Source of the DNA: Acidobacteriota bacterium
Lineage (GTDB): Bacteria; Acidobacteriota; Vicinamibacteria; Vicinamibacterales; 2-12-FULL-66-21
Assembly: GCA_046732715.1 (NCBI GenBank)
Contig: JBKPNQ010000131.1
Span: 1,692-65,691, forward strand
Direction: 5' to 3'
Length of the DNA: 64,000 bases
Part shown: positions 13,461 through 59,722 of the stretch, one piece after another
Layout: every line of letters starts with the position of its first letter
Position numbering within the stretch: the first letter of the stretch is position 1
Position numbers and translations under genes: made by a program
Notes under the pieces: generated by a model
Seen by the model: the letters and a program-made list of their open reading frames with translations, nothing else
Told to the model about the DNA's origin: nothing
The model's database searches: none

Positions 13461-16400
13461 ATGGCACCGCACACCTACCGCAACACGCTGAAGCAACGGG
13501 GACTGCAGCCGTTTCTGTGGACGCAGTTCCTGGGCGCCTTCAACGACAACCTGTTCAAGATCGTCGTCTCGATGCTGGCGGTGCACATGGTCGCCGCCGC
13601 GCGCGCGGGACGGGAGCTGTCGATCGTCAGCGCAGTGTTCATCTTGCCGTTCCTGCTGTTTTCCGGCTACGCCGGTCAGCTCGCCGACGTCTACAGCAAG
13701 CGCACTGTGCTCGTCGTCTCCAAATCGCTCGAGATCGTCGCGGCAGGCCTCGGCTTCGTAGCGTTCGCCTTCGGACATCTGCAGCTGACGTATGCGGTCT
13801 TGTTTCTGATCGCGCTGCAGGCGACGTTCTTCAGTCCGGCGAAATACGGCATCCTGCCGGAGATGCTGCCGGACCGCGACCTGTCGCGCGCCAACGGCGT
13901 CCTCGAGATGAGCACGTTCGTCGCGATCGTGCTCGGCACGGCGGTGGGTGGATACCTGTTCGAGGCCTGGCGCGCACATCTGTGGGCCGTCGGCCTGGTC
14001 GTCGTCGCTGTTGCGATCGTCGGCACCGCCTCGAGTTTCGGGATCCCGCGCGTTCCAGCCGCGGCGCCGACTCAACGAATCAACAGGAATCCGTGGGGAG
14101 AAATCTGGGCCGGCATCTCGACGCTTCGGCGCGACCGGGTGCTCTGGCTAACGGTGCTCGGCATTTCGTACTTCTGGTTCCTTGGATCGCTGCTCCAGCT
14201 CGTCGTGATCCTGTTCGGGACCGACGTCATGGCCCTCAGCGATACGTGGGTCGGCGTCCTTACGGCGTTCGCGGCGATCGGCATCGGGATCGGCAGTCTC
14301 GCCGCCGGCCGGTTGTCGGGTGACAAGGTCGAGCTTGGCTTGGCGCCGATTGGTGCGATAGGCATGGGCGTGTTCGCGATTGCCCTCGCGCGCTCGGGCC
14401 ACTCGTTCACGCTCGCGGCCGTCAACCTGACGCTTGTCGGCTTCTTCGGCGGCTGCTTCGCCGTGCCGCTCAACGCGCTCCTTCAGCAGCGCAGCGGCGG
14501 CGACGAAAAGGGCCGGCTGATGGCGACCAACAACTTCCTGAACATGGTCGCGATCATGGTCGCGTCTGGGGCGCTCTCGATTCTGAGCGATCGATTCCGG
14601 CTTGCCCCCGATCGCATCCTGCTGGTGTTCGGCGCGCTGACGCTGCTGTCGAGCGTGTACGTGCTGAGCATCGTCCCGGAATTCCTCGTGCGCTTCAGCC
14701 TGTGGCTGCTGACGCACACCATCTACCGCATCCGCATCGTCGGCCAGGAGCACGTGCCGTTTCGAGGACCGGCGCTGCTCGTCTGCAATCACCTGTCTCA
14801 TGTCGACGGCGCGCTGGTCGGCTCCTGTGTCCAGCGCTTCGTTCGATTCCTGGTCTACGGGCCGTACTACGACCACTGGGCGCTCCATCACTTGCTGAAG
14901 CTGATGAAGTCGATCCCGATCGGCGCGGGCCGCGAGGCGCTGATGGCGATCGAACAGGCGAAACGCGAACTCCAGAATGGCCACGTCGTCTGCATCTTCG
15001 CAGAAGGATCGATCAGCCGAACCGGCAATATGTTGCCGTTCAAGCGCGGCTTCGAGCGGATCGTCGATGGCCTGGACGTGCCGATCGTCCCTGTCTATCT
15101 CGATCGCGTCTGGGGCAGTATCTTCAGCTTCAAGGGCGGACGCTTCTTCTGGAAGTGGCCGGTGCGCGTGCCCTACCCGGTGACCGTTGCGTTCGGCTGT
15201 CCGCTTCCCGCGAGCGCTACCGCCGCCGAAGTACGACTTGCGCTACAAACGCTCGGCTGCGACGTGGCGATGCACCGGCGGCCGGCTGACGAGTCGCTCG
15301 GGCGCCAGTTCGTGCGAACGGCGAAGCATCAGTGGCGGTCGTTCGGGATGGCGGATGCCACTACCAAGCCGATGACGTTCGGCCGCGTGCTGGTCGTCTC
15401 GCTCCTGCTCTCGCGATGGGTGCGGCGACGCCTCGGGCACGACACGAACGTCGGGGTGCTGCTGCCGGCATCGGTCGGCGGGGCGCTGGCGAACATCGCG
15501 GTGTCGCTCGCCGGCAAGGTGCCGGTCAACCTCAACTTCACCGCAGGACGCGATTCGATGGCCGTCGCCGTCGACACGTGTGGCCTCAAGGCGATTCTCA
15601 GCTCGAAACGGTTCCTGTCGAAGGCTGGCATCGAGCCGCTCGAAGGGACCATTTATCTCGAAGACGTCATGGCGGAGATCGGCCGGTTCGCCCGGTTACG
15701 TACGTTCGTAATCGCACGGCTGCTGCCGTCGTGGGTGCTCAACCGGCTGTACCTCGAGCGGATCGACGGCGACGCGCTCGCGACGGTGATCTTCTCCAGC
15801 GGCAGCACCGGGACGCCGAAGGGCGTGATGCTCGCACATCGCAACATCCTCGCGAACGTCGATGCGATTGGGCAAATCTACGAGCTGACGTCAGACGATG
15901 TGATGGTCGGCGTGCTGCCGTTCTTCCACTCGTTCGGCTTCACCGGAACCGTGTGGTTCCCGGCGATCAGCGGCTTCGGCGTTGTTTACCATCCCAATCC
16001 GATGGACGCGAAGACGATCGGCGAGCTCGCGGCGCAGTACAAAGCGACGCTGATCATCAGCACGCCAACATTCTGCTCCTCGTACATCCGCAAATGCGAA
16101 CCGGAGCAGTTCAAGCACCTCCGCTACGCGATCGTCGGCGCCGAGCGGCTACGCGAATCGATCGCGACGGCGTTCAAGGCGAAATTTGGCATCGATCTGC
16201 TCGAAGGGTACGGCTGCACAGAGATGGCGCCGGTCGTCGCGGTCAACGTGCCGGATGTCGAGGATGGACACGAACGCCAGCGAGGCACGCTCGTCGGTTC
16301 GGTCGGTCATCCGCTGCCGGGCGTTGCGGCCAAGATCGTCGATTCCGTCACCGGCGAAGGTCCGCTGTTTGGCCGCGAAGGTCTGCTTCTCGTCAAGGGA

Positions 16401-16859
16401 CCGAACCGGATGATCGGCTATCTCTCCGATCCTGAGAAGACGTCGGACGTGATCCGCGACGGCTGGTACGTCACCGGCGATATCGCGATGATCGACGACG
16501 CGGGTTTCGTTCAGATCACCGATCGGTTGTCACGCTTCAGCAAGATCGCCGGCGAAATGGTGCCACACATACGGGTCGAGGAACAGTTGCAGGCGATTGT
16601 CAGCGATCAGTGCACGGCGGTGGTGACCGGAGTACCTGACTCGACAAAGGGGGAACGCCTGGTTGCGTTCTACACCGATCCCGATCTGTCGCCGCAGGAG
16701 ATCTGGGAGCGTCTCTGTCAGACCGATCTTCCGCGTCTCTGGTTGCCCAAGCGCGACGACCTTCAGTTCGCGCTGTCGATTCCGACACTCGGGACCGGCA
16801 AGGTCGACCTGCGCGCCGTTCGTCAACTCGCGCTCGCGCACATCGGATCCGCCGTTTAG
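13461..16859 (+). CDS. aas: Triple-fusion lysophospholipid transporter (MFS, LplT-like) + PlsC-type acyltransferase + acyl-ACP synthetase (Aas-like)
   Basis: 1132 aa. The N-terminal ~400 aa are MFS-like with about 12 helices. The acyltransferase HX4D motif is CNHLSHVDG, with FAEGSISRTG downstream. The AMP-binding motif is IFSSGSTGTPKGVMLAHRN, with later GYGCTEM and GWYVTGD. Confidence 0.9.
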   Translation: MAPHTYRNTLKQRGLQPFLWTQFLGAFNDNLFKIVVSMLAVHMVAAARAGRELSIVSAVFILPFLLFSGYAGQLADVYSKRTVLVVSKSLEIVAAGLGFVAFAFGHLQLTYAVLFLIALQATFFSPAKYGILPEMLPDRDLSRANGVLEMSTFVAIVLGTAVGGYLFEAWRAHLWAVGLVVVAVAIVGTASSFGIPRVPAAAPTQRINRNPWGEIWAGISTLRRDRVLWLTVLGISYFWFLGSLLQLVVILFGTDVMALSDTWVGVLTAFAAIGIGIGSLAAGRLSGDKVELGLAPIGAIGMGVFAIALARSGHSFTLAAVNLTLVGFFGGCFAVPLNALLQQRSGGDEKGRLMATNNFLNMVAIMVASGALSILSDRFRLAPDRILLVFGALTLLSSVYVLSIVPEFLVRFSLWLLTHTIYRIRIVGQEHVPFRGPALLVCNHLSHVDGALVGSCVQRFVRFLVYGPYYDHWALHHLLKLMKSIPIGAGREALMAIEQAKRELQNGHVVCIFAEGSISRTGNMLPFKRGFERIVDGLDVPIVPVYLDRVWGSIFSFKGGRFFWKWPVRVPYPVTVAFGCPLPASATAAEVRLALQTLGCDVAMHRRPADESLGRQFVRTAKHQWRSFGMADATTKPMTFGRVLVVSLLLSRWVRRRLGHDTNVGVLLPASVGGALANIAVSLAGKVPVNLNFTAGRDSMAVAVDTCGLKAILSSKRFLSKAGIEPLEGTIYLEDVMAEIGRFARLRTFVIARLLPSWVLNRLYLERIDGDALATVIFSSGSTGTPKGVMLAHRNILANVDAIGQIYELTSDDVMVGVLPFFHSFGFTGTVWFPAISGFGVVYHPNPMDAKTIGELAAQYKATLIISTPTFCSSYIRKCEPEQFKHLRYAIVGAERLRESIATAFKAKFGIDLLEGYGCTEMAPVVAVNVPDVEDGHERQRGTLVGSVGHPLPGVAAKIVDSVTGEGPLFGREGLLLVKGPNRMIGYLSDPEKTSDVIRDGWYVTGDIAMIDDAGFVQITDRLSRFSKIAGEMVPHIRVEEQLQAIVSDQCTAVVTGVPDSTKGERLVAFYTDPDLSPQEIWERLCQTDLPRLWLPKRDDLQFALSIPTLGTGKVDLRAVRQLALAHIGSAV

Positions 16860-22890: not shown

Positions 22891-23057
22891 GCGCCCCTCC
22901 AGTCCAACCCTGCCCGTTTCAGGTGAAAGAACAATCCTCGCCGCTTCGTCAATCTCCTTCGCCACCCGCCCGGGGAAGTCTACGCGATGGCACACAATCC
23001 ACGGTGTGATTCCGAGCATAATGACCTTGGGCGCGAGAGGGTGACGTGATTGCATTC

Positions 23058-25331
23058 ATGAGGAAACATGCTCTCGCAATGACATTGGCTGCCGGCCTCA
23101 GCCAAGCGGTTGGACTGGCGCAATCACCCCAGCCCGACACCGCGTCGAGTCTTTCCACAAATCCTGCCCACGTACGTGAATTGGCAGACTGGCTGGTGGC
23201 CAAGAACCCGAAGGTGCGCGAAACCGCCGAGGCCGCGCTGGTGCAAGGGGCGCGGCGTTCGTTCCCTTTGCTGAGACGATTCCTCACGCCTGAGCACAAC
23301 AACCTGCATGGGGTGACTTTTCAAATCATCCAGCGCATCGGCCCTCCGGCGATTCCGCTGCTGGTGGAGTTGCTGCGGCATGACTCGGAGTCCATCCGGC
23401 GCAGCGCCGTCGACGAGCTGATCGACCTGGCGCCCCACACAGAATGGATTCAGCCGGCGTTGAGGCGGGCGCTCCGAGACCAGGATTCGACCGTCGCCGG
23501 CGATGCGGCACGCGCGCTGGGCGCGTTGGGCAAGAGGGCCACTCCTTCGGTCGCCGCTCTCGTCAGGACTCTTTCGCACGAAGATCCATACGTCCGCGTC
23601 TACGCGGCGGAGGCGTTGGCATCCATCGGTCCGACCGCGGCGACTGCGACAAGCGCCTTGGCAGAGGCGTTAGGCGATCCTGTTCCCGGCGTTCGGTGGG
23701 CGGCGTGCGAGGCGCTCGGAAGCATCGGCGCGGCGGCTCAATCTGCAGTGCCGCGTCTGATCGACGCGCTGGAAGATGAATTTCTCTATGTGCGTATCTT
23801 TGCCGCCGGCGCGCTGGGAAGCATCGGACCGAAGGCACAATCGGCACGAGAGGCGCTGACGGCGGCCGCAGATGATCCCGCGTTGCGTGATGAAGTCGAG
23901 TGGGCGTTGAGTCGAATCAACGGAGCCAAATCTGGGGAGCCTGTCGCGTCACAGGTTGCGCCCGCGGCTTCCGTCGCTCCCCCGCTCGAGACGACCACGG
24001 TTCGAACGGGCAATCCTCCGGTTGACTGGGATACGACCACCGGCCGGAACATCGTCTGGAGTGTGGAATTGGGAAACGAAACGTATGGTCGTCCCGTGGT
24101 TGCTGGCGAGGCGGTCTATGTCGGGACCGACAATGCGAGGCACATGAACCCCGACTATCAGGAAGACGCCGCCGTGCTCGTGGCACTTCAACCGAAGAAT
24201 GGCAAGTTCCTGTGGCAGGACGTGGCCCCGCGAGTCGAGCGAGGTCTGCGGGAGTTCCTGTTGCCCTCGACGACAAGTGCGCCGTATGTGGAAGGAAACC
24301 GGTTGTACTACGTCACGGCCGAATGCCAGCTTCGTTGCCTCGACACACAGGGCTTCCGCGATAGCGAGAACAATGGTCCGTATCAGGATGAGCCCTTCCA
24401 GGACACCGCAGCAGCCGACATCGTCTGGGAGTTGGACATGTGTCGCCGCCTGGGTGTCTTTCCGCACGAAGCGACCAATAGCGAGGTCTTGCCCGTCGGT
24501 GATCTGCTGGTGGTCTCTACCTCCAACGGACAGAATGAAGGCCACACGCGCGTGCCATCGCCGCGCGCCCCAAGTCTGATTGCGGTGGACAAACATTCGG
24601 GCGAAGTGGTCTGGCGCGCCATCGGCGCGGGCGCGCAGGTGTTGCACGGCCAGTGGTCGAGCCCCGTGGCGGCCAACGTCAACGGGCGCACACAGGTCCT
24701 CTTTGGCGGAGGAGATGGCTGGCTGCGCTCCTACGACGCGGCGTCGGGGCACGAAATCTGGCGATTTGACGGCAATCCGAAGCACGCCCGTTGGCTGCCG
24801 CGACCCGGAGTCCTGTCGCGCAGTTCCATCATTGCTTCACCGGTCTTCGCCGACGGTCGCGTCGTCATTGCGATGGGAATGAGTCCTGAGCACGGCAATG
24901 GACCGTCGTTGATTTACGCGATCAGTCCGAACGGCCAGGGAGATGTCACCGAGAGCAGGCTCCTCTGGACTTCTCGGGACGTCGGCCGCGTGGTGGGAAC
25001 GCCGATTGCGAAGGACGGTCTTCTGTACGTCGGCGACCTTGGCGGAACGATTCATTGTCTGGACGCGGCGACCGGCGCCCAGGTGTGGAAACACGAGACG
25101 AACGAGGCGATTTGGGGAAGCCTCCTGATGGCCGGGGACCGGCTTTACGTTGGGACCGTTGACGGCAGCATGATCGTTCTTCGTGGCGGACGGAAAAAGC
25201 AATTGCTGGGACAGATCCAGATGGATGCGCCGATCTACACGCCTCCGGCCCTGATCGGCGATGCGCTGTACCTGGCCACGGCGATCCGGTTGTATCTCAT
25301 CGCGGCAACGCCAGGATCCCAGACTCGTTGA
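23058..25331 (+). CDS. Exported HEAT-repeat + PQQ-like (BamB-like) beta-propeller protein
   Basis: Signal peptide MRKHALAMTLAAGLSQAVGLAQS (alternative GTG at 23046). The N-terminal ~280 aa carry repeated HEAT/PBS-lyase motifs (D..VR..AA.ALG.IG). The C-terminal part has repeated propeller blades (..SGEVVWRA.., ..ASGHEIWRFDG.., ..ATGAQVWKHET..). Confidence 0.9.
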   Translation: MRKHALAMTLAAGLSQAVGLAQSPQPDTASSLSTNPAHVRELADWLVAKNPKVRETAEAALVQGARRSFPLLRRFLTPEHNNLHGVTFQIIQRIGPPAIPLLVELLRHDSESIRRSAVDELIDLAPHTEWIQPALRRALRDQDSTVAGDAARALGALGKRATPSVAALVRTLSHEDPYVRVYAAEALASIGPTAATATSALAEALGDPVPGVRWAACEALGSIGAAAQSAVPRLIDALEDEFLYVRIFAAGALGSIGPKAQSAREALTAAADDPALRDEVEWALSRINGAKSGEPVASQVAPAASVAPPLETTTVRTGNPPVDWDTTTGRNIVWSVELGNETYGRPVVAGEAVYVGTDNARHMNPDYQEDAAVLVALQPKNGKFLWQDVAPRVERGLREFLLPSTTSAPYVEGNRLYYVTAECQLRCLDTQGFRDSENNGPYQDEPFQDTAAADIVWELDMCRRLGVFPHEATNSEVLPVGDLLVVSTSNGQNEGHTRVPSPRAPSLIAVDKHSGEVVWRAIGAGAQVLHGQWSSPVAANVNGRTQVLFGGGDGWLRSYDAASGHEIWRFDGNPKHARWLPRPGVLSRSSIIASPVFADGRVVIAMGMSPEHGNGPSLIYAISPNGQGDVTESRLLWTSRDVGRVVGTPIAKDGLLYVGDLGGTIHCLDAATGAQVWKHETNEAIWGSLLMAGDRLYVGTVDGSMIVLRGGRKKQLLGQIQMDAPIYTPPALIGDALYLATAIRLYLIAATPGSQTR

Positions 25332-47955: not shown

Positions 47956-48819
47956 CTATGCCAGGGCCTTGCCGTACAGCGCGAGCAGCCGGCTCCACGC
48001 CTTCTCGGCCTGCGGCTCGTTGTAGACACCGGAGTCAGGCGGACACCATCCGTGCGCGGCGCCTTCGTACACCTCGATTTCCGCCGGCAGGTTCGCCTTG
48101 GCGAATGTCTCCTTGAGCACGTCCTTCTCTTTGGGCGACCGCTGGTCGTCGTTCGACGCGATCGCGATCAGGAATTGCGCGTGCGTCTTCGCGGCCTGAA
48201 TGTGCGGGCTGTTTGGTGTATCGTTCACGAGCCCGCCGCCATGAAATGATGCGACGGCGCCTACACGGTCTGGCGCCGCGGCCGCCGTGCGAAACGCGAT
48301 CGGGCCCCCCATGCAATACCCCTGAGTCCCGACTTTTCGATTCTTCGCGACCGACGGCTGCTGATCCAGCCATCCAATGAACGCCTTCGCATCGGTCATC
48401 TGCGTCGTCTCGGTCAGGCCCTGCGCGAGCGGCCGCACATCGGCGATTGGTGTCGCCGCGCCGTTCGGTGCCGTGGGAGCTTTCTTCGCACGGTAGAACG
48501 GGTTCACGACCAGAACCGAATAGCCGGATTCCGCGAGCCGCTTCCCCATCTGCCGGAACGCGGGCCGTAAGCCGAAGATGTCTGGCCATACGAGCACAGC
48601 GGCGGCGGTGCCGCTCGCCGGGTGCACGAAATAGCAGTCGGCGGTGCCGTCGGGCGTCTTGATCTCGACATCTGATTCCGTGACCGCCACCGCGTTCGCG
48701 ACCCGTGGCAACATCATCGTGAGACCTGCTCCAACCAGCACACCGAACTGTCGACGCGTCACCAATCCGCGCGCTTCATAGTCGAGTCGGTCCTGCTCAA
48801 AATGATCCTGATCGCACAT
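47956..48819 (-). CDS. Tat-exported dienelactone hydrolase family protein
   Basis: ATG 48819 is preceded by AAGGAG. VTRRQFGVLVGAGLTMMLPRVANA is Tat-like. VLVWPDIFGL, the nucleophile elbow GYCMGG (Cys type, as in dienelactone hydrolases) and ..YEGAAHGW. The upstream 140 codons of the ORF are not coding-like. Confidence 0.9.
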   Translation of the reverse strand: MCDQDHFEQDRLDYEARGLVTRRQFGVLVGAGLTMMLPRVANAVAVTESDVEIKTPDGTADCYFVHPASGTAAAVLVWPDIFGLRPAFRQMGKRLAESGYSVLVVNPFYRAKKAPTAPNGAATPIADVRPLAQGLTETTQMTDAKAFIGWLDQQPSVAKNRKVGTQGYCMGGPIAFRTAAAAPDRVGAVASFHGGGLVNDTPNSPHIQAAKTHAQFLIAIASNDDQRSPKEKDVLKETFAKANLPAEIEVYEGAAHGWCPPDSGVYNEPQAEKAWSRLLALYGKALA

Positions 48820-49039
48820 GTTTGCTCCTTGATTATCCGAGAGTTCGCCCCTCGGCACGCCTCCGCTGAAGCTTCGGCGATGTCCGCCGTAGCCTTGGCG
48901 AAGGCGGAACTCCCTCACGCGCTCTCTCGCGAGCCGCTTCGCCGACTCGCTTCGCTGCGCTCGCTCGCGTCCTTTCGCGCCCACCCTTGCAGCAGACTCG
49001 ACGAGTATATTGAACTCCCAAAACTGCTGTCGCGTACCG

Positions 49040-52000
49040 TCAAAAGGCCTGACCGATGCTGAAGTAGAACCGGCTGCGCTTTTCGCCCGGACGCGGGTCG
49101 AGCACCCAGCCATAGTCGGTCCGGAGGAGAACCCATGGCGTCCGGAGACGAATGCCGACGCCGCCCGACTCGCGAAGATCGGTAAAAGTGAAATCCTTGA
49201 TGGCCGGGAACACGTTCCCGATATCGACGAACAGCACCCCATCGACGATGCGTACGAGCGGCATCCGAAGCTCGTTGTTGATCACCAAAGACGCAGTGCC
49301 GCCGGCCGGAACGTTGTCGACACCAACAGGACCAACCGCATTCTGCTCGAAGCCGCGCAGGGTCGTGCTCCCGCCCGCGTAGAAACGTTCGCTCGTCGGC
49401 ACCTCGCCACCCAGACCATGCGCCAGACCGACCCGAAGGCCGGTCGCAAACACCAGCCGTGGCCGCAGGATTTCGTTGGTGAAAGGTTTCGGCCGTTCAG
49501 GACGCAACGGGAAATAATGGAAGTACTGGCCGTAATACTTCACGTACGGGCGGTCGGAGCCAAGCCAGCTCGGGGAATACGCGAACGCCTGCGAGAGGAA
49601 TGTCCCTTTCGCAGCGTCGAGCACTTCGTCGCGCGTTTCACGCGTGAGGGTGCTCGTCAGCGGCGTGACCCGCACGGTTTCTGTCGCGCCGACACCGAGC
49701 GACGGCTCGAGCGTCGTGGCTAATTCGTACCGGTAACCGTAGCTCCACACGTAGAACTTGCGGAACTGTGCTTCCTGCTGAACCGACGCCCCCTGGCGGC
49801 TGATGTCGAACGGATCGGTCTGTTCCGTTGGCGGGTTGAGGTCCTGGCGGAAATAGACGCTGCCGGTCGTCTTCCGCGGCCAGGACCGCAGCGACGGTTG
49901 GCTCATATAGATGCGTGCTTCGTGGATCTCGCTGTCGTATCGGCCCTGCGCGCCAAGGACGCGGGCTTTCCCCAACGAATTGTGGATTGAAAAATCCAGG
50001 ATTCCGCCGAGCCCACCTTCAGTGTCGTACGACAAGCCGTATCGCAGCTGCACCGGCTGGACTTCACGTACCGACACAGTCAGATGGACAGGCTTCTGAT
50101 CGTGGCTTGCCGCATCCTCGGCGTTGGCGTCATCGGGAGCAGACGTGGGGGCCTCCGCGCCGACCTCTCCCCGAGTGATGTCCGCGATCGAGAACGCGCC
50201 CGTGCTGTAGAGATTCTTCCGCGAACGGGCCAGCATGGCGAGATCGAGCGGCTGCAGCGGCGACAGTTCGATCTGGCCGCGAACGAGACGTTCGCTCGTC
50301 TTTCGGTTGCCTTCGACCGTAATGTTCGCGACCACGCTTTGTCGGCCTTCGACAATCGTGAAGGCGACATCAACGCTGGCACTGGTTCGATCGATCGCGA
50401 GCGCGTACTCCGATCGCATATCGTTGTAGCCCTTGCGCCAGTAGAGATCGCGGATCCGCTCGAGCGAGTGCTCGGCCGCTGCGGCCACGAAGGGGCTGCC
50501 GGAAACGAGGGACAGTCGCCCAATGATGTCCGCAGAGGGATAGGTCGTGTTCCCGCTGACGGTGACAGACCTGGCGAGAAAGCGTCGACCTTCGCGAACG
50601 GGAAGAACAACACGGGCCGTCGTCCCCTGAAAATCAAAACGAGGTGCGTCGATCTCCGCCGCCAGATACCCTTGGTCGTGATAATAGCGCTGTAGCAGCG
50701 CCGTTACGGCCGATGGATCGGTGAACAGCTGGCGTTCCAGCCGCTGCTGCTCAACGATCTTGTCCAATCGACCGGGATCGATCCCTGCGACACCTTCGTA
50801 TGCGACGATCACCCTGTCGTACTGCGGCCCTGGCTGAACACGAAAGGTCACCCGCCGCCGGTCGCCGGCGTCTTCGACGGTGTATTCGGCGCTCGGTTGC
50901 AGGTACTTATCCCCCATCAGCCATTCTTTCAGCACCCGAACGCTGTCGTTGCCTCGTTGCTTATCGAACACGCCCTGCTGCCAGGTCGCCCGAACCTGCT
51001 GCTGAATTTTCGACGGCGGGGTGATCCCTTCGAAACGCAGTTCGACGAGCGGACCGCTTGCGACACGCAGCGCCAGATTGGCCGCATCGCTGACGACGTG
51101 GCGATCCAGGCGCACGCGCGATTGCAGATAGCCCGCTTCGAGATAGCGCTCTTCGATGCGCTCGAGGCCGGCGCGGGCGGCAAAGAATTCGTACGGCTCC
51201 CCGATCTTCAGTTTGAAAAGCTTGCGCAGCGTGGCTTCGTCAAGTCCGTTGTCTGACGTCACCGTGAGGGTCTGGATGGTCGGCCGGTGCCGCAGTTCGC
51301 GTCTCGGAGCCGGATCGCCGCCAAAGCGCAGGTCGTGGCGGAAGTCGACCCGATAGCTGTCGTCATCGCGTTCGCGCACACCACGCATCTGGAACCGCCG
51401 GCTGACGTCATACTCCGCGACCCAGATCTGATCGTTGCTATCTGCCAGGTTCGTCGAGTAAATGAGCTTCACCTGGTCGGTCACGTTCTGCCCGACGGTC
51501 AGGCGCGCGGTGGGATCCGTCTCGTTCGCGATCAGCACCGGCTCTATCCGTACTTCGCTGATTCCCGTCGCCCGTTCGAGTCCTTTCCCGAACCTCGAGC
51601 CGACGCGGCCGGTGAGATACGTCAAGGCCTGCACGCGAGCGACTTCAGATTCTTCGCCCCGCATTTCGTCAACGGTGCGCCCGGTCACGAGCAGCGCCAT
51701 GATGTCTGGCTCCGCCAGCGGCGGCTCCGACGTCCAGCTCGCATCGGTCTTCCCTGGCGTGCCGGCGATGGCAATCCTGACGTCGTAATTGCTCGCTTTG
51801 GTGTTCAGCGCCAGGTCGACCGACGGGACGATCCGGCGATCGTCGACGAAGGTGATCACGCCACGCTCCACTTCGTAGCGGCGCGCGTTCAGCGTGATCT
51901 GGCCTCCTTCGGCAAGCGTCATTCGGCCGGTGAGCCCGGGCTCGTACGGCGTCCCGACGATATGAAGGTCCGCGTCGATCTCGGCGCGCGCCAGATTGTT

Positions 52001-55000
52001 ATCGATTGTGACCGGCGCCGCCGTTTTAACGCTGATGTTGAACCGCACTCGCTCGAGCAGGGAATCTCGTGTTGCGGTGAGATCCAGCGTTCGGGGTGCC
52101 TCGATTGCCGCGAACAGCCCTTCATTGAGATTGATATCCGTAGTGAGACCCGCCTCCTTGATCGTGACCTGCCCGCCAACCAGAAACTCTTCCCCTCGAC
52201 GGTTCACGCGGATGGCCGCATCCGACAGGCTGCGCAATGCCAGCGGAGCGTCGTAGGCAACGTCATTGGCGGACAGCCGCAAATCGATGTCGCTGATGGT
52301 TCCGTTACCGAGCGTCAAGCTGCCCGATCCGTCGAGGGCGCCACCGTTTACCTCGCCCGTGAGCCGGGCCAGCTCGATTCGATGACCGGCCAGGTTGACG
52401 TGCGCGTTGACGCCGACCGCGGCGACATTGAGGTCGTCGCTCGCGACGGTTGCCTCCTCGAGATCGAAGGTGCCGTTGAGTGCCGGCTGCGTCAACGTTC
52501 CAAGCGCCGACACCTTCCACAGCGCCATGCCATCGGCGCGAATTCCTGGTGTCAGTGCCGACAGTGCCGCTACCTGGAGGTTGCCGTCGACGTTCACGTC
52601 GACCGCCCGCTCGCCAAGGAGGCCGATAGTCCCCTCGGCTCGCACGGATCCTGCCGACCCCGAGAGGGCGAAACGCTCCACCGTTGCCTTGCCCGAATCG
52701 ATGCGGATCCTCGACGTTTCCTGCTGGCTGAGGGCGAACCGCTTGAACGACAGCTCGAGCTGAGGAAACGCGATGGACCCGTTGAGGGTGGCGAGATCAC
52801 CAGGGGCGGCTGAGGCGACGATGTCCGCTCCGATTCGCCCGGCGAGTCCTGGCGGTGCGCCCGGAAGCGTCACTGGATCGAGGTTTCGTATTGATGCCTT
52901 GAATGTGGCGGGCCCGACCCTTCGGGAGATCTCGACCGGCAGCGGTGGAAGCACCTCGAGAGGAAGGGTGCCCGATGCCTCGATCGTCGCGGTCCCCCAT
53001 TGGCTCGTCAGCTGTTCGATCTCCACCGCGCCGTCGCCAATTCTCGCGCGCAGCTGAATATTCGAAGCGGCCGGCTGCAGCTGCGGCGCCGAAAGCATGC
53101 CGTTTTCAACCGTCAGGTTGAGATCCGGAACAATCGATTGCAATGTGCCGTGGACCGAACCCGTCAGGCTGGCAGCACCCTCGCCGGTGAACTTCATGTT
53201 TGAGGGCAGCAATCGGGCCAGCGTCGTCAGATTGGCTCGTGCTTCGACTGCCAGGTCGCCGGTTCCAGCGCTCGCTGTAAGCGGCAGTGTCCCGCTTACA
53301 GCAAGCGAGGAGTCGCGCGCTGTCACCTCGACACGGTCGACGGTGAGACGCTGATTCTCGTATTGCAGGTCACGTGGGCTCGTCACGCTGAATGGCTGTC
53401 CGTTCCATGACCCTGCCAGTGCTTCGATGCTCGCTGTCGCGCGTCCTCGGACGGGCTCGACGAGATCGCCGGAGGCGTGGACAGTGCCGCGCAGGCGCCC
53501 CTCGAGCATCGTGACCACACCCAACGGTAGCGTCGCGAGGTCGAGATCGTTGGCACGCACCGTGAGCGTTGTCGGCCACGGCCGAGCGAGCCCTATCAGC
53601 GCGTTGGCGTCGAGCTTGAAACGCTCTGACGCCGCGGTCACGGTCGCCTGATTGTTTGCGGCGGTCGCCGCGATGACGATTCGGCCCAGCTCTGTAACCG
53701 ATGGCGCAGGTCCGTTCGGATCTGGAGAGCGTTCCTGGAGACTGTCCATCTCGAGCGAATCGGCGTTGAAGTGCAGCGCGCCCGATGGCGAGCTGACGGT
53801 GCCCGCTCCCTTCCCCGAAATCTGAACATTGCCGCGGAACCGCCGTCCGTCTGGCAACGTGAACCCGAGAAGTCGAACGTTCTCCGATTGAACGTCATAC
53901 GTGTAGCTGCTTCGATCGAAGTCGTAGGACCCGTTGCCGTTGACTTGGCCCTGACTTCTCTCCTGCGGCTTATCGATGACCAAACGCGAAACCGCGAGCT
54001 GGCGATTCGTGAGCGTTGCCTCCGCGGTCAACGATCCAAACAGTTCGCCAAATGCCGTCATGTCTGCGCCGTGCAAACTCAGGCCGGCCTGGGGACGCGC
54101 GATGGTGCCGCGAATGGTGCCGCTGACATTGATCCGGCCGGATACCGGGATCGCCCGCAACTGAGTCGCCTGAACCAATGGCTGCAAGTCCGCAGCGTCA
54201 GCAGTCATCGCCAGATCGAGTGGTTGCGTGCCGGTTAATCCAACCGTACCGATCAGGGCAGCTCGGGCGCCGCGCCAGCTCCCCTCACCGCGAGTGATCG
54301 ATACCGCGGCCGGCGTCGCGGTCAGATCGGCAGCGATCTGAACTCCATGCGCTTCGCCCACCGACAGCGCTGGTGCGCTGACGGTCATCAATGCGGTCGG
54401 CGTCTCGAGGGTCCCGCCGAGTCGGGCGTCCACGGTCGCCTCGCCTCTGACCAGCGACGGCACGAACGACCCGGGCGTGCGTCCGAGAAACGATTCCGTG
54501 CTGCGGGCGGCGGGCGCGAGGTCAGGTGCGTGTGCTCGGAGCGCGCCAACAAGACGACCACCAACGTCAACCTGCAGCCGGCCGTCCAGGTGCGTGCCCG
54601 CAACGACGATCTGCCGCGCATCAACAACGACGGTTCCGTCCTTGCCTCGCGCCGACAGTCGACCGCCCAGCGGCAGCACTTTCGGCGCGGCCGACGTCGG
54701 CGTCAAGGTCACCGCTCCGGTGCCGGACCCAGTGCGGTATTCGAGCCCCGGCCATTGCGCGTCGATCGCCCCATTCAGCCGTGTACCGACGACATGCGCC
54801 GCGTTCAGTCCGCGGAGAACGGCGGCAAGGTCGATATTGGTGAGCTCCGCGTGCAGTTGCGATCGGCCATTCCGCCCGACGCCAAGATCGCCTGTCGCCA
54901 TCATCCGGCCCCACGGCGCGTCGGTACGCGCCGTCACGTGGGCGCGCTGAGCTGACGAGTCGTAGGCCGCGCGCACTTCCAGCTCGCCTCCCCGGAGCGA

Positions 55001-55942
55001 TCGAAACTGAAGGTCCGAAGCGGACGCGAGCGCCTCGAGAGCCAGCGCAGATAACGGGCCCTTCGCTGTCGCCTCTACGGTCATCATTCCCATGACCGGA
55101 TCGGGCATGTCGACAAATGCCGCGACTCGGGAGACATCGACATTCCCGTGCCCCGTGACTTCCAGTTGCGGGGTGTCGAACCCGCGCAGCGCGCCGCCGA
55201 GATCGACGCGTGAGCCAGCGGCATCGAGTCGCACGCGATCGATTCTCAGATCGTCATGGCCTAAATCCAGAACTCCGGACACTCGATCGATAGCGTCGAC
55301 GTGCTTTCCGACCTGCACGTGACCGTGCTCGCCCTCGAATCTGACCTGATGGCGATTGGTCAGCGCGCTGCCCCTCACCTCGATCGCCGACACCGGGACG
55401 GCGAGAGCGACCTGGTGCACGCGATTCACGTAGCGAAGGTGGGTGTTCGAGATCAGTAGATGGTTGACGAGGTAGTCGGGAAGCTTCCGTGACGCGGTCG
55501 GACCGGAGGGCGGTCGCGGGAGGTTGTCCCGGCCGTCCTCATCGACGACATATTGAACGTCGGCACCGTCCACCACCCCCGACTGCACAACGGAGCGCCC
55601 GCGGAGTAGTTGGGTGAGGCTCAAATCGAGCTGGACGTGTCCGATGGTTGCAAACGCTGGCAGGCCCGCCGCGTCGGCAGCGCGGACGCGGACATTCCGC
55701 GCGTCGATCGAGAGCGTGAAGAGGTTGTAGCGCAGCGAATCCGTCTGCAGGTCGATGCGCCGGGAAGCCAGGAACGCGGTGAGCCGATCGAGTGCAAACT
55801 TACGCGCTGGACCTGTTTGAAGTACTAGGAGCAACAGGAAGACGAGCAAGCACGGGCCACCCGCGAAGATAGCGAACCTCCGAATCACGCGCCGCGCTCT
55901 GGGCGGCGGGGGATTCGATTCCATTCCCGGCCCTCGTGTCAC
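49040..55942 (-). CDS. Giant envelope protein: TamB-like (N-terminal membrane anchor, long beta-rich region, DUF490-type C-terminal domain) fused in frame to POTRA repeats + Omp85 (TamA/BamA-type) beta-barrel
   Basis: Uninterrupted 2300-codon ORF (GTG 55942 or ATG 55924). Anchor FAIFAGGPCLLVFLLLLVLQTG. DUF490-like DLALNTKASNYDVRIAIAGTPGKTDASWTSEPPLAEPDIMALLVTGRT...LTVGQNVTDQVKLIYSTNL...WVAEYDVSRRFQMRG...YRVDFRHDLRFGG. POTRA-like units follow (IQTLTVTSDNGLDEATLRKLFKLKIGEPY..., VTVSGNTTYPSADIIGRL..., ITVEGNRKTSERLVRGQIEL...). The barrel reads ...ERFYAGGSTTLRGF...VLFVDIGNVF...GVGIRLRTPWVLLRTDYGW...SRFYFSIGQAF. Confidence 0.9.
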   Translation of the reverse strand: MTRGPGMESNPPPPRARRVIRRFAIFAGGPCLLVFLLLLVLQTGPARKFALDRLTAFLASRRIDLQTDSLRYNLFTLSIDARNVRVRAADAAGLPAFATIGHVQLDLSLTQLLRGRSVVQSGVVDGADVQYVVDEDGRDNLPRPPSGPTASRKLPDYLVNHLLISNTHLRYVNRVHQVALAVPVSAIEVRGSALTNRHQVRFEGEHGHVQVGKHVDAIDRVSGVLDLGHDDLRIDRVRLDAAGSRVDLGGALRGFDTPQLEVTGHGNVDVSRVAAFVDMPDPVMGMMTVEATAKGPLSALALEALASASDLQFRSLRGGELEVRAAYDSSAQRAHVTARTDAPWGRMMATGDLGVGRNGRSQLHAELTNIDLAAVLRGLNAAHVVGTRLNGAIDAQWPGLEYRTGSGTGAVTLTPTSAAPKVLPLGGRLSARGKDGTVVVDARQIVVAGTHLDGRLQVDVGGRLVGALRAHAPDLAPAARSTESFLGRTPGSFVPSLVRGEATVDARLGGTLETPTALMTVSAPALSVGEAHGVQIAADLTATPAAVSITRGEGSWRGARAALIGTVGLTGTQPLDLAMTADAADLQPLVQATQLRAIPVSGRINVSGTIRGTIARPQAGLSLHGADMTAFGELFGSLTAEATLTNRQLAVSRLVIDKPQERSQGQVNGNGSYDFDRSSYTYDVQSENVRLLGFTLPDGRRFRGNVQISGKGAGTVSSPSGALHFNADSLEMDSLQERSPDPNGPAPSVTELGRIVIAATAANNQATVTAASERFKLDANALIGLARPWPTTLTVRANDLDLATLPLGVVTMLEGRLRGTVHASGDLVEPVRGRATASIEALAGSWNGQPFSVTSPRDLQYENQRLTVDRVEVTARDSSLAVSGTLPLTASAGTGDLAVEARANLTTLARLLPSNMKFTGEGAASLTGSVHGTLQSIVPDLNLTVENGMLSAPQLQPAASNIQLRARIGDGAVEIEQLTSQWGTATIEASGTLPLEVLPPLPVEISRRVGPATFKASIRNLDPVTLPGAPPGLAGRIGADIVASAAPGDLATLNGSIAFPQLELSFKRFALSQQETSRIRIDSGKATVERFALSGSAGSVRAEGTIGLLGERAVDVNVDGNLQVAALSALTPGIRADGMALWKVSALGTLTQPALNGTFDLEEATVASDDLNVAAVGVNAHVNLAGHRIELARLTGEVNGGALDGSGSLTLGNGTISDIDLRLSANDVAYDAPLALRSLSDAAIRVNRRGEEFLVGGQVTIKEAGLTTDINLNEGLFAAIEAPRTLDLTATRDSLLERVRFNISVKTAAPVTIDNNLARAEIDADLHIVGTPYEPGLTGRMTLAEGGQITLNARRYEVERGVITFVDDRRIVPSVDLALNTKASNYDVRIAIAGTPGKTDASWTSEPPLAEPDIMALLVTGRTVDEMRGEESEVARVQALTYLTGRVGSRFGKGLERATGISEVRIEPVLIANETDPTARLTVGQNVTDQVKLIYSTNLADSNDQIWVAEYDVSRRFQMRGVRERDDDSYRVDFRHDLRFGGDPAPRRELRHRPTIQTLTVTSDNGLDEATLRKLFKLKIGEPYEFFAARAGLERIEERYLEAGYLQSRVRLDRHVVSDAANLALRVASGPLVELRFEGITPPSKIQQQVRATWQQGVFDKQRGNDSVRVLKEWLMGDKYLQPSAEYTVEDAGDRRRVTFRVQPGPQYDRVIVAYEGVAGIDPGRLDKIVEQQRLERQLFTDPSAVTALLQRYYHDQGYLAAEIDAPRFDFQGTTARVVLPVREGRRFLARSVTVSGNTTYPSADIIGRLSLVSGSPFVAAAAEHSLERIRDLYWRKGYNDMRSEYALAIDRTSASVDVAFTIVEGRQSVVANITVEGNRKTSERLVRGQIELSPLQPLDLAMLARSRKNLYSTGAFSIADITRGEVGAEAPTSAPDDANAEDAASHDQKPVHLTVSVREVQPVQLRYGLSYDTEGGLGGILDFSIHNSLGKARVLGAQGRYDSEIHEARIYMSQPSLRSWPRKTTGSVYFRQDLNPPTEQTDPFDISRQGASVQQEAQFRKFYVWSYGYRYELATTLEPSLGVGATETVRVTPLTSTLTRETRDEVLDAAKGTFLSQAFAYSPSWLGSDRPYVKYYGQYFHYFPLRPERPKPFTNEILRPRLVFATGLRVGLAHGLGGEVPTSERFYAGGSTTLRGFEQNAVGPVGVDNVPAGGTASLVINNELRMPLVRIVDGVLFVDIGNVFPAIKDFTFTDLRESGGVGIRLRTPWVLLRTDYGWVLDPRPGEKRSRFYFSIGQAF

Positions 55943-57385: not shown

Positions 57386-59722
57386 CTACCTGGTAACGAT
57401 GACCAGCTGCCGCTTGACCTGATAGCCGTCGCTGCCGGACGCGGTCAGTTCATACGTCGTCGTGCGGGCCGGAGTGACGCGAAGACACGTCAGCGCGCTC
57501 GCCGGCTTGACGTCACCGACACCAGGGTCGATGCGGGCATGCATAGCCCCGCTCGTCGCATAGCAGAGAGCGGTGGATCCGCCGGTCGCGATCGAGCCGG
57601 GCCGCGGACTGAAAATCAGGATGCTCGCCCGCTCGGTCGTCGGTCCGCGCGGCGTCGACCCATTGAGACCCACGCGAACGAGCACGGTCTGGCGCACGCT
57701 GTCTCCCCCTGCCGTCCGCGCCGTCAGCGTGTAGGTCGTCGTCTCCGAGGGTGCGGCTCGCACGCAGTTCCGTTGACGTGGGTCTACTTCGCCAATGTCC
57801 GGATCGATTCGCACGCCTGCACCATTGGCCACTTCATAGCAGAGACCGAGGGACTCTCCTGCGGTGATGACGTCAGGAAAAGCCGTAAATCTCAGCACAC
57901 TCGCCGCAGGCGCCGCTCGAACCGGTTGCGGCGGAATCTCGATATCAGTGGTTGGCACTGCGAGGCTGCTCTGAAGAACGGGACGGCTGCCGGAGACGTT
58001 CAGATCTGTCCACGACAGCCCAGAGCGGCTGGCCAGGAATCCCAGTCCCCCCAGGATGATGAACAGCAAGACGACGAATAACGGCGCGGCGGAGGTTTTC
58101 CTGTTGGCGATGACAACCGGCGACGGAACTGCGTCTCGAAGCGGCAACGAATCAAATTCCGGCACCGCCGCGGCTACGGGCGTGGACACCGGGCGGCGTG
58201 AAGCGATAGCGATGGGGGCCAGCACAAAACTGAGATTTCGCCGGCTTGCGGCGATAGCATCATCGTCGTCCAGCGTCTCGCGCAGCTTCAGCGCCCGGCT
58301 CAATGAGGTTCGCGCGATCCCGGCATCGCCCAGACAGAGGGCGCGCGTTCCAATCTCGTGCAGCGCCCAGGCTTCCGCCGATCGATCCTTCATCGCCTTT
58401 GCGGCGGTCAGACACCGGTCGAGGGTAATCGCCCACGCACCCCATCGCGCGCCAGCCACCAGCGCTGCCTCGATCAGCCGGCCGAGGTGAAGCACTTCGC
58501 CCCATCTCTGCATCTCAACCGCGCACTGCTGGACGCGCAACAACGCGTCCGATTCCTCCAGCAGCGCGTTCGGGGTGCGACGGTAGCGCTCGGCCCATGC
58601 GGTGAAATAGGTGATCGCGCGATTCACCCACGGCCTCAGGTCCTCGGTTCGACGCAGCTGGTCGGCGACACCGTCGGCGAGTCGATGCCGCGACTGGCTC
58701 CGAACAACGAGTCCCTCGCGAACCAGCGCGGCCAGCGATGGTTCGACGTCGATGACTTCGGCCAGGCCGGCAATGTGTTGAACCGGCAGCGAGACGATGG
58801 AGAGCGCCGCCAGCACGCGCCGCTGTTTGTCGTCCGTGGATGTCAACAGCTCGGTGATCAGCTTGTCCGGCAGGACGTCGCGCGCGACCACGTCGATCGC
58901 GATTCCACGATCGCGAATGAGGGCTGCGACCTGGCGAATGCGAAGCGGATGTCCTTCAACGCTTCCACAGACATCAGCGGCAAGCGATCGCTCGGGTGGG
59001 CTGAGCGGCCGCCCAACTTCGCGTTCAAGCAGCAGGATTGCTTCAGTCGCAGCAAGGCCGTGAAGCACAACACTCCGCACCTCGCCGAGCAAGCACCGCT
59101 CGCGCGTCGCCAGCGCCAACGCCGATCGCGGCGCAACGTCGAGCAGTTGCTCCATCTCGTTCCGGGCAAGCTGCACATCGTCGAGGAGGATCAGTGCCTG
59201 CTTGTCCTCGAGCCCGCGGCGGATTTCCGCCGTGGTCGGCTTCGAGACCTGACCGCTTTCGTAGAAGGCTTCGAAGATCAGCTGAAGGATGTCAGCGGAC
59301 GACTGACCTCGCGCCGAGATGTAGATGACACCGTCGACGAACGCCGCCGCTCCCGAATGATGCGCAAGCTGGTGGAGAAACGCCGTCTTACCGACGCCGC
59401 GTTCGCCACTGACTTCAATGGACAGGCCGGCATCGACGGCGGACAGCGCGTCACTCAGTTCCTGCTGATGCCCCAGAAAACCACGAGTCAGGCCCGGACG
59501 CTGGAGGATTGGGGTGGCACGCGCGCGACTGTGTGATCCAGTCTGAGCCGCTTCCTCGACGACACCGCCAAATGCCTGGCCGACATGAATGACATAGCGG
59601 CCGACGAGGATTTGAGCGGCAATCGCGCTGTACAGGGAGGATGACGCACCCGGTGCGTTGGCCTCATCGGCCGGCGCATCCAAGGGCCGATCGGACCCGT
59701 CGAGGTTGAGCTTCGTGATCAT
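57386..59722 (-). CDS. NB-ARC-type STAND ATPase with helical/TPR-like region, one transmembrane helix and two C-terminal extracytoplasmic Ig-like repeats
   Basis: 778 aa. Walker A GERGVGKT (res 106-113). Walker B ALILLDDV. ALALATRER (sensor-I-like). EGHPLRIRQVAAL (GxP motif). Winged-helix-like RRVLAALSIVSLPVQHIAGL. TPR-like AEAWALHEIGTRALCLGDAGIARTSLSRALKLRE. TM APLFVVLLFIILGGLGFLA (res 546-564). Two ~78-aa repeats each have a Cys pair (..SLGLCYEV..GVRIDPDIGEV....NCVRAAPSETTTYTLTA.. and ..STALCYAT..HARIDPGVGDV....TCLRVTPARTTTYELTA..). Confidence 0.85.
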   Translation of the reverse strand: MITKLNLDGSDRPLDAPADEANAPGASSSLYSAIAAQILVGRYVIHVGQAFGGVVEEAAQTGSHSRARATPILQRPGLTRGFLGHQQELSDALSAVDAGLSIEVSGERGVGKTAFLHQLAHHSGAAAFVDGVIYISARGQSSADILQLIFEAFYESGQVSKPTTAEIRRGLEDKQALILLDDVQLARNEMEQLLDVAPRSALALATRERCLLGEVRSVVLHGLAATEAILLLEREVGRPLSPPERSLAADVCGSVEGHPLRIRQVAALIRDRGIAIDVVARDVLPDKLITELLTSTDDKQRRVLAALSIVSLPVQHIAGLAEVIDVEPSLAALVREGLVVRSQSRHRLADGVADQLRRTEDLRPWVNRAITYFTAWAERYRRTPNALLEESDALLRVQQCAVEMQRWGEVLHLGRLIEAALVAGARWGAWAITLDRCLTAAKAMKDRSAEAWALHEIGTRALCLGDAGIARTSLSRALKLRETLDDDDAIAASRRNLSFVLAPIAIASRRPVSTPVAAAVPEFDSLPLRDAVPSPVVIANRKTSAAPLFVVLLFIILGGLGFLASRSGLSWTDLNVSGSRPVLQSSLAVPTTDIEIPPQPVRAAPAASVLRFTAFPDVITAGESLGLCYEVANGAGVRIDPDIGEVDPRQRNCVRAAPSETTTYTLTARTAGGDSVRQTVLVRVGLNGSTPRGPTTERASILIFSPRPGSIATGGSTALCYATSGAMHARIDPGVGDVKPASALTCLRVTPARTTTYELTASGSDGYQVKRQLVIVTR

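Follow-up and report, generated by a model that had tools for sequence, protein, structure and literature searches.

A single gene in the window, i.e. the whole 64,000-nucleotide stretch of acidobacterial DNA that was analysed, encodes a TamB-like protein continuous with a POTRA-bearing Omp85 barrel. We confirm that this TamB-Omp85 fusion is real, and consider it probable, at roughly 0.6, that the gene encodes a covalent, single-chain translocation and assembly module (TAM) reaching across both membranes. The minus-strand open reading frame, 49040..55942, is uninterrupted and comprises 2,300 codons when counted from its GTG. Translation probably begins at the ATG at 55924, which has GAGGG upstream of it; the resultant 2,294-residue product is the version also given by public gene callers and is identical to a database protein (P0001). 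The presence of three full-length domain matches in a 6.9-kb open frame makes a chance origin impossible. The original prediction, made from the letters and their translation, was of a 6.9-kb frame without in-frame stop, running from a signal anchor through a long TamB/AsmA-like β-region ending in DUF490, via a short linker, to POTRA domains and an Omp85 barrel; both the frame and the layout are borne out (Table 1), and the strings that it quoted lie where they were placed (..RFGG ending at nucleotide 51317, then the linker, and ..SRFYFSIGQAF at the C terminus).

Table 1. Features of the fused gene and its product; residue numbers are counted along the open reading frame.
Feature	Position	Strand	Residues	Basis or remark
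Fused protein CDS	49040..55924	(-)		Stop 49040-49042; open frame reaches GTG 55942 upstream
Signal-anchor hydrophobic core AIFAGGPCLLVFLLLLVLQTG	55811..55873	(-)	24-44	Hydropathy scan
TamB/AsmA, bridge-like lipid-transfer β-groove	52364..55756	(-)	~63-1193	~75 strands
TamB/DUF490 domain	51317..52363	(-)	1194-1542	PF04357, secondary structure, E. coli TamB alignment
Last DUF490 strand SYRVDFRHDLRF	51323..51358	(-)	1529-1540	β-signal-like; GG follows
Linker DPAPRRELRHRPT	51278..51316	(-)	1543-1555	13 residues, Pro/Arg-rich
Five POTRA domains	50165..51277	(-)	~1556-1926	Each β-α-α-β-β (model secondary structure)
Omp85 16-strand barrel	49043..50098	(-)	1949-2300	C-terminal β-signal ..FYFSIGQAF

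The N-terminal part of the product has the features expected of a TamB. The signal-anchor core lies in the sole strongly hydrophobic stretch of the whole protein in the hydropathy scan (residues 23-44) and is covered by a helix at residues 14-41 of the AlphaFold model, together predicting an uncleaved inner-membrane signal anchor. The groove that follows, ~1,350 residues in length and upstream of a full TamB/DUF490 domain, is modelled as ~75 consecutive strands with a pLDDT of 86.6, i.e. as the long, continuous 'taco'-type β-groove of TamB proteins. Its best Foldseek matches are LPD-3/BLTP1, the ApoB100 belt and the Vps13 N terminus (E 7e-7 to 5e-4), with the low TM-scores that are expected of long flexible rods, and Pfam returns weak DUF748/AsmA-type matches to the N terminus. 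Hence the proposal that the N-terminal 1,500 residues are TamB/AsmA-like stands, there being matches both to TamB/AsmA-like models and to the bridge-like lipid-transfer fold.

The match to PF04357 at residues 1194-1534 is strong and covers almost the entire profile (E 2.9e-36; 126 bits versus a cutoff of 22.4; profile positions 3-381 of 381). The AlphaFold secondary structure of the DUF490 region comprises the last part of the groove, helices of low confidence and 5-6 short β-strands, the strands having confidence values of 54-83 in a model with a pTM of 0.56. The last of these strands, SYRVDFRHDLRF, has one hydrophobic/aromatic face and another reading R-D-R-D-R; per-position analysis of 235 fusions reveals that both the alternating hydrophobic/charged pattern and the terminal Phe are conserved. 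The strand aligns residue-for-residue with ALDLLYQFEF at the C terminus of E. coli TamB, including an Asp matching D1252, and thus shares with that protein a β-signal-like end to DUF490. DUF490 in the fusion is internal, rather than being at the extreme C terminus with an aromatic β-signal residue as in TamB, because the conserved strand and its terminal Phe are succeeded by GG, the linker and 750 further residues. The NCBIfam TamB equivalog, NF047952, matches only residues 1122-1264, with 40 bits against a cutoff of 825.

The second half of the chain belongs to the Omp85 superfamily, as manifested by matches to PF07244 (E 5e-29) and, over the full profile, to PF01103 (residues 1988-2300; E 5.8e-39), and by the aromatic C-terminal β-signal; the C-terminal residue is F, Y or W in 391 of the 397 long homologues that we retrieved. 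Profile and fold comparisons indicate that this half is BamA-like, not TamA-like. It has the five POTRA domains, 16-strand barrel and loop-6 (V/I/L)RG(F/Y) motif (LRGF, residues 2195-2198) characteristic of BamA, and in a Foldseek comparison the DUF490, POTRA and barrel segment aligns with full-length E. coli BamA over ~840 columns (E 6e-42). The best match to a curated family is to TIGR03303 (BamA), the positions covered being 61-741, although the score is below cutoff (243.1 bits versus 297.15). By contrast, the TamA model NF047950 gives 63.9 bits against a cutoff of 625, and there are five POTRA domains rather than three. We rejected Foldseek TM-scores as a guide to barrel opening, the higher scores being those of shorter target chains.

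These similarities raise the question of whether the barrel half is the housekeeping BamA, possibly the only Omp85 of the cell, in which case general outer membrane protein insertion would be tied to a TamB bridge. The five POTRA domains, the match over nearly the whole of TIGR03303, the fold similarity to full-length BamA and the naming of one fused homologue (P0106) as BamA by NCBI are all consistent with such a role. We nonetheless regard it as quite unlikely, given that the score lies under the family cutoff, that the gene neighbourhood is not of the bamA type, that an inner-membrane tether would limit the mobility of BAM and that Acidobacteria are reported to have a canonical BamA as well as a second, BamA-like TamB partner (Heinz et al. 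2015, PMC4494059). As originally noted, no tamA-like gene is adjacent; there is no second Omp85 gene beside the fusion, and neither the window nor ~1.7 Mb of related loci yielded another Omp85 or a partner gene. Except in one close relative (L079), no conserved gene order was detected around the fusion across related loci, and a promoter/terminator scan gave no signal exceeding shuffled expectation.

The two halves are joined by a linker that is itself a conserved feature. Its family-wide motif is xP(A/E)PRRxxRxRPx, with conserved Pro/Arg positions, and its length in 235 sequences is mostly 12-17 residues, with a mode of 13. No signal-peptide-like stretch is present in the linker or at the junction, where the highest 15-residue hydropathy average nearby is 0.93. 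The barrel half therefore has no independent export signal, and differs from BamA in having no cleavable signal peptide of its own and in not being a stand-alone secreted precursor. One interpretation is that the protein is a polyprotein, exported whole and then cut in the Pro/Arg-rich linker to give a two-subunit TamB plus Omp85 complex, such that the fusion would serve solely for co-export of the halves and for fixed stoichiometry. Consistent with processing, the linker motif is conserved and contains a dibasic RR with flanking prolines, unlike a random spacer; the linker is predicted to be disordered (pLDDT <50 at its centre); and the Phe that terminates free TamB proteins is kept immediately before it. 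However, no protease or cleavage motif is known for the site, and the tightly conserved length suggests a geometric constraint, for which a cleaved spacer would have no need. Further, the conserved arginines could equally be explained by contact with the head groups of lipids on the periplasmic side of the outer membrane. On balance, we consider cleavage unlikely and favour a chain that remains intact.

The retrieved sequences show that the fusion is a large acidobacterial family and not a peculiarity of one genome. Among 472 retrieved proteins, 397 are of at least 1,900 residues and these have the same layout, with identity down to ~24%; the full-length fused proteins form more than 100 clusters, ranging from 76% to 24% identity, and the junction is spanned, mostly as one aligned stretch, in all 150 of the best representatives of 50%-identity clusters. 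Searches of reference genomes gave 114 stretches matching the fusion; of the 80 loci kept, which are labelled as Vicinamibacteria, Bryobacterales and other Acidobacteriota, ~60 have an intact frame. Complete genomes carry the fusion (e.g. OY970174.1 and OZ252029.1), and an identical 2,277-residue fusion is assembled in ENA/NCBI, JGI and Logan data, providing independent assembly support. When a cultured or non-acidobacterial host was sought, only MAGs, metagenome contigs and 'bacterium' records were found.

The possibility that two ordinary genes have been joined by sequencing or assembly error, or that the locus is decaying, is raised by the interruption of some related loci, but is effectively refuted by the overall data. 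The few broken copies are mainly on contigs of long-read MAGs (with names of the form contig_NNNN) or at the ends of contigs; both the frame and the conserved linker are retained in hundreds of independent sequences; and the barrel half carries no signal peptide of its own. Comparison of related genomes for fused versus split arrangements, which could have overturned the original prediction, instead revealed orthologous loci to be uniformly fused. One candidate for a natural split orthologue (P0077; 1,449 residues, TamB only) was rejected as a broken copy, since its locus (L001) is frameshifted at query residue 1413 and lacks the sequence beyond residue 1485. Likewise, short 'Omp85-only' representatives (P0129, P0195, P0241 and others) are fragments, beginning inside DUF490 or with out-of-frame junk.

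The fusion shares with E. coli TamA-TamB an inner-membrane signal anchor, a long β-groove, DUF490 and an Omp85 protein with POTRA domains. It differs in that E. coli has two polypeptides, encoded tamA then tamB, whereas here there is a single chain in which, as proposed, the order is reversed, TamB preceding Omp85; further, E. coli TamA has three POTRA domains rather than five, and the TamB part of the fusion is longer by ~280 residues. Scores against the proteobacterial TamA and TamB family models are far under their cutoffs. In place of the two separate subunits of a canonical TAM there is one frame, without an internal signal peptide and conserved as a fusion; we found no description of a TamB-Omp85 fusion in the literature searched. 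In E. coli, C-terminal strands of TamB and strand 1 of TamA form a hybrid barrel, and a role in lipid transport has been reported (PMC13119328). Since recent cryo-EM work places TamB C-terminal strands within the TamA barrel wall, an inner-membrane-anchored chain that reaches the outer membrane is not new per se.

By homology with this system, we infer that the N-terminal helix would be anchored in the inner membrane, that the TamB-type hydrophobic groove (~1,500 residues) would cross the periplasm and that the C-terminal five-POTRA barrel would be inserted in the outer membrane, with its lateral seam as the docking site for the last amphipathic DUF490 strands of the same polypeptide, comparable to the docking of the E. 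coli TamB C-terminal strands with TamA strand 1. If it functions uncleaved, as we favour, the chain would form a permanent 1:1 bridge for phospholipid delivery, perhaps with a part in the assembly of some outer membrane proteins. The analysis thus supports the earlier reading of the fusion as a one-polypeptide TAM, with the single, uncleaved working chain being its conditional part. When the E. coli lumen salt bridges were mapped onto the fusions, at ~18% identity, conservation was seen on one side only. The Asp matching TamB D1252 is conserved, but most of the aligned fusions have Gly at the position of TamA K283, and a counterpart of R368 is kept only in part of the family, which weighs somewhat against the proposed docking.

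The 13-residue linker can span at most ~45 Å and has to reach POTRA1, which of the five POTRA domains is the most distant from the barrel along the chain. If the linker is too short for docking within the chain, the terminal TamB strands might instead insert into the barrel of an adjacent chain, so that dimers or arrays would form. The shortness of the linker relative to the five-POTRA arm and the moderate AlphaFold confidence of the DUF490 strands count against same-chain docking and are compatible with such an arrangement, as is the coevolution analysis. The latter employed mean-field DCA on 306 sequences (effective number ~204), with gap-rich columns, which had dominated a first run, being filtered; it recovered hairpin contacts within domains, which served as controls, but no clean ladder of contacts paired the last TamB strand with strand 1 of the barrel, this block being no better than noise. 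Coevolution, however, cannot tell intra-chain from inter-chain contacts, there is no positive sign of oligomers and the E. coli TAM has a 1:1 stoichiometry (PMC11014939). We consider inter-chain docking very unlikely and same-chain docking at the seam the tentatively preferred arrangement.

The closest precedents for the combination of parts come from partners encoded separately. In acidobacterial BamA-like/TamB operons, i.e. in the same phylum, TamB is likewise paired with a multi-POTRA, BamA-like Omp85, and it is from this pairing that the TAM is considered to have originated (Heinz et al. 2015, PMC4494059). A split locus of this kind from an Acidobacteriaceae (L002) encodes an Omp85 of 1,093 residues, a 261-residue gene product and a TamB of 1,353 residues, with only ~24-26% identity to the fused protein; its operon order is opposite to that of the fusion, so simple loss of a stop codon there cannot yield the fusion order. 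Partners other than TamA also occur in the TamB-BamA of Borrelia burgdorferi and the chloroplast TIC236-TOC75, where the TamB homologue is paired with a five-POTRA BamA or a different Omp85 protein; the spirochaete gene order, tamB then bamA, is that of the fusion, but in both systems the partners are non-covalent. The Borrelia partner is its sole, essential BamA, and a housekeeping role for the fused barrel would be an extreme form of that partnership. A more speculative version of that role, which we view as decidedly improbable, has the fused barrel as the main or only BamA-type insertase, with the five POTRA domains curling back to place POTRA1 at the barrel rim, where it would ring the groove exit. 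Were it so, lipid delivery and β-barrel insertion would be hard-wired in one immobile, two-membrane machine, the barrel of which would have to be assembled while its own chain was still anchored in the inner membrane.

The function of the TAM complex and the stability of the TamA-TamB contact are presently being worked out. A large natural family in which the partners are covalently joined by a linker of conserved length provides independent evolutionary evidence for permanent 1:1 association, and adds to what has been published on the evolution of the TAM in Acidobacteria, the phylum in which the module is proposed to have arisen. As a single-gene, fixed-stoichiometry object, the fusion may be useful in structural studies and in complementation experiments. 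It also brings into focus the question of biogenesis, i.e. how BAM folds a barrel whose chain remains tethered to the inner membrane, and poses one of geometry, i.e. what layout of a five-POTRA arm places its first domain within ~45 Å of the barrel seam.

A groove domain and a barrel on a single chain are also found in LptD, in which a periplasmic, lipid-carrying β-groove delivers cargo through an outer-membrane barrel. LptD is of an unrelated family, with a 26-strand barrel and no inner-membrane anchor, and the other parts of the Lpt bridge are separate proteins. LptD structures are among the Foldseek fold matches of the groove, where they score weakly.

The original prediction of one stop-free ORF encoding TamB-like, POTRA and Omp85 parts in that order was borne out: the gene is a single open frame of 2,300 codons, its Pfam matches follow the proposed order (see table), and the strings and coordinates quoted for it proved correct when checked against the sequence. 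Translation likely starts at the ATG at 55924, preceded by GAGGG; the resulting 2,294-residue product is also that of public gene calls. Fusions of this type are publicly annotated as 'TamB domain-containing protein', as 'BamA/TamA family outer membrane protein' or with a double BamA/TamB label.

Features of the fusion gene and protein, other window genes and related loci (protein residues count from the GTG at 55942; adding 1109 converts C-terminal model numbering to ORF residues)
Feature	Location	Evidence
Fusion gene	window 55942-49040 (-)	
DUF748/AsmA-type	N-terminus of fusion protein	Pfam, weak
TamB/DUF490	residues 1194-1534	Pfam, E 2.9e-36, whole profile covered
POTRA repeats	fusion protein	Pfam, E 5e-29
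Omp85, full domain	residues 1988-2300	Pfam, E 5.8e-39
Groove end, then low-confidence helical stretch	start of C-terminal model	AlphaFold
Five or six short strands	C-terminal model 371-431	AlphaFold
Disordered linker	C-terminal model, after short strands	AlphaFold
Five clean POTRA domains (beta-alpha-alpha-beta-beta)	C-terminal model, after linker	AlphaFold
Short disordered acidic insert	C-terminal model, between POTRA domains and barrel	AlphaFold
16-strand barrel	C-terminal model, last element	AlphaFold
LplT/Aas-like ORF	window 13461-16859 (+)	
HEAT/PQQ_2 ORF	window 23046-25331 (+)	
Dienelactone-hydrolase ORF	window 47956-49242 (-)	
Weak promoter-like site	window 49033-49004	
NB-ARC/AAA ATPase	window 57386-59722 (-)	
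Small gene in split operon	L002 7156-7941	no Pfam match
Broken fusion relative	L001 8001-12573	

Two AlphaFold models, with 34 diverse homologues as the input alignment, describe the predicted fold. That of the N-terminal 1,144 residues (pLDDT 86.6) consists of a long helix (ORF 14-41), followed by a second one and some 75 consecutive beta strands, and its best matches among solved structures are the bridge-like lipid-transfer proteins LPD-3/BLTP1, the ApoB100 belt and an N-terminal fragment of Vps13. That of the C-terminal 1,191 residues (pLDDT 78.5, pTM 0.56) aligns with full-length E. coli BamA over about 840 columns (E 6e-42). The NCBIfam BamA model TIGR03303 (positions 61-741) likewise aligns with residues 1623-2300, at 243 bits against a cutoff of 297, and the protein falls far under the cutoffs of the proteobacterial TamA, TamB and TamL models. 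That the fused barrel is the housekeeping, or the only, BamA of its host seems to us quite improbable. In the entire protein, strong hydrophobicity is confined to residues 23-44; hydropathy revealed no signal-peptide-like stretch near the junction, so the barrel half would not be exportable by itself.

The architecture is widely conserved. An initial database search yielded over 100 full-length protein clusters (approximately 2,200-2,390 residues) with the same Pfam order, at 76% down to 24% identity. When the C-terminal 1,191 residues were searched against 1.8 billion cluster representatives, all of the best 150 matches were fusions, most covering the query end to end in a single stretch, with E-values near 1e-155 even at the last of them. 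At least 1,900 residues were present in 397 of 472 retrieved proteins, 391 of which end in an aromatic residue. Scanning one genome per species identified 114 stretches encoding junction relatives; in the 80 loci kept, the match spans almost the entire junction query. Their labels comprise Vicinamibacterales, Vicinamibacteria, Luteitalea sp., Bryobacterales/Solibacteraceae/Bryobacteraceae, UBA6911 and 'Acidobacteriota', with Polarisedimenticolaceae and Thermoanaerobaculia among further fusion records; the closest to the window are Vicinamibacterales MAGs, with junction identities of 79-80%. The frame is intact in about 60 of the 80, the broken copies lying mainly on long-read MAG contigs (contig_NNNN names) or at contig ends. 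A sequencing artefact, which would reduce the fusion to two ordinary genes, is effectively excluded by its recurrence in hundreds of sequences and by an identical 2,277-residue fusion that recurs in independent ENA/NCBI, JGI and Logan assemblies. Typical acidobacterial fusion genes also occur on three contigs labelled 'Bifidobacteriaceae' or 'Gemmatimonadales' (L036, L039, L026), probably through binning or labelling errors.

In an alignment of 36 homologues the junction has the same layout throughout: the last DUF490 strand, GG, a short linker and POTRA1. It is under constraint. The strand before the linker has the consensus S-Y-R-(F/L)-D-F-R-H-D-(L/V)-R-F-G-G, with a hydrophobic/aromatic face opposite an R-D-R-D-R face, the pattern that a barrel-wall strand facing a water-filled interior would be expected to show. 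It aligns with ALDLLYQFEF at the C terminus of E. coli TamB, the terminal Phe matching Phe and the conserved Asp/Glu matching D1252. Among 235 full-length fusions the linker is mostly 12-17 residues long (13 in 94 of them) and rich in Arg (22%) and Pro (16%); 13-residue linkers follow the motif xP(A/E)PRRxxRxRPx and carry net positive charge. Conservation of the linker would also suit its being cut after export to leave an ordinary two-subunit complex, which we consider unlikely. A sub-branch with proteins of 2,370-2,450 residues (P0108, P0114, P0283) has a longer low-complexity spacer, of tens of residues, after the DUF490 end and, ahead of the usual POTRA1, one more POTRA-like module (about 90 residues).

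A 2026 cryo-EM preprint (PMC13119328) reports that E. coli TamA holds TamB through a stable hybrid barrel: TamB has six strands within the membrane, and its C-terminal beta-signal strand is paired with strand 1 of TamA. According to the authors, this state supports phospholipid transport. By homology, we propose, with a probability of roughly 0.6, that the fusion acts as a single-chain TAM: its N terminus would be anchored in the inner membrane, the chain would span the periplasm as a lipid groove and terminate in its own Omp85 barrel, and the DUF490 strands would dock at the seam of that barrel. With an even count of membrane strands the last would end on the periplasmic side, from where the basic linker could rest on the inner leaflet before running into POTRA1. 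The coevolution signal was too weak to show contact between the DUF490 strands and the barrel seam, and one of the two partners of the E. coli lumen salt bridge is not conserved in the fusion alignment. A 13-residue linker reaches at most about 45 Å, its target being the POTRA domain most distant in sequence from the barrel; therefore either the POTRA arm is curled or docking occurs between chains rather than within one, the latter being, in our estimation, very improbable.

As originally predicted, no adjacent tamA-like gene is present: neither a second Omp85 gene nor any conserved neighbor was found near the fusion gene in the window or related loci. Orthologous loci uniformly show the fusion rather than split genes. 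The sole apparent split relative, P0077, was rejected as a frameshifted and truncated copy; its locus (L001) holds a gene closely related to the fusion (46% identity), with a frameshift at query residue 1413; the part beyond 1485 (DUF490 end, POTRA domains and barrel) is missing, with small ORFs that match no family in its place. Either decay of the copy or a fault of long-read assembly could account for this. In the split operon of an Acidobacteriaceae locus (L002), genes for an Omp85 protein (1,093 residues), a 261-residue protein and TamB (1,353 residues) follow in the BamA-TamB order described for Acidobacteria by Heinz et al. (PMC4494059), whereas in the fusion TamB precedes Omp85, which therefore required rearrangement beyond mere loss of a stop codon. 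At another locus (L083), the fusion gene is immediately preceded by a 206-residue gene that has no match; a small accessory protein is possible at both loci.

No natural TamB-Omp85 fusion was mentioned in the open-access and bioRxiv literature that we searched, which included work on TAM evolution and TamL, an Omp85 superfamily survey and reviews from 2023/2024; a description that we have not seen is possible. All the parts, and the interaction between them, are already known; the covalent single chain, reversed order, five-POTRA partner and wide Acidobacteriota distribution appear to be undescribed.

The window contains a second envelope-lipid gene fusion, a 1,132-residue ORF whose single chain has MFS-transporter, acyltransferase and AMP-binding-enzyme parts, an arrangement similar to LplT, the lysophospholipid transporter, fused to Aas, the acyltransferase/acyl-ACP synthetase. 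A 761-residue ORF has HEAT repeats and a PQQ_2 beta-propeller, a fold family with a BamB-derived Pfam name. Downstream of the TamB-Omp85 gene, the dienelactone-hydrolase ORF, if started at its first ATG, would share 200 nt with the 3' end of that gene; its true start is probably later, because its Pfam match begins only at residue 203, and a weak promoter-like site lies by it. The nearest relative locus (L079) has neighboring genes in common with the window, and a 778-residue STAND-type ATPase, about 1.5 kb past the 5' end of the fusion gene, is common to both (55-66% identity).
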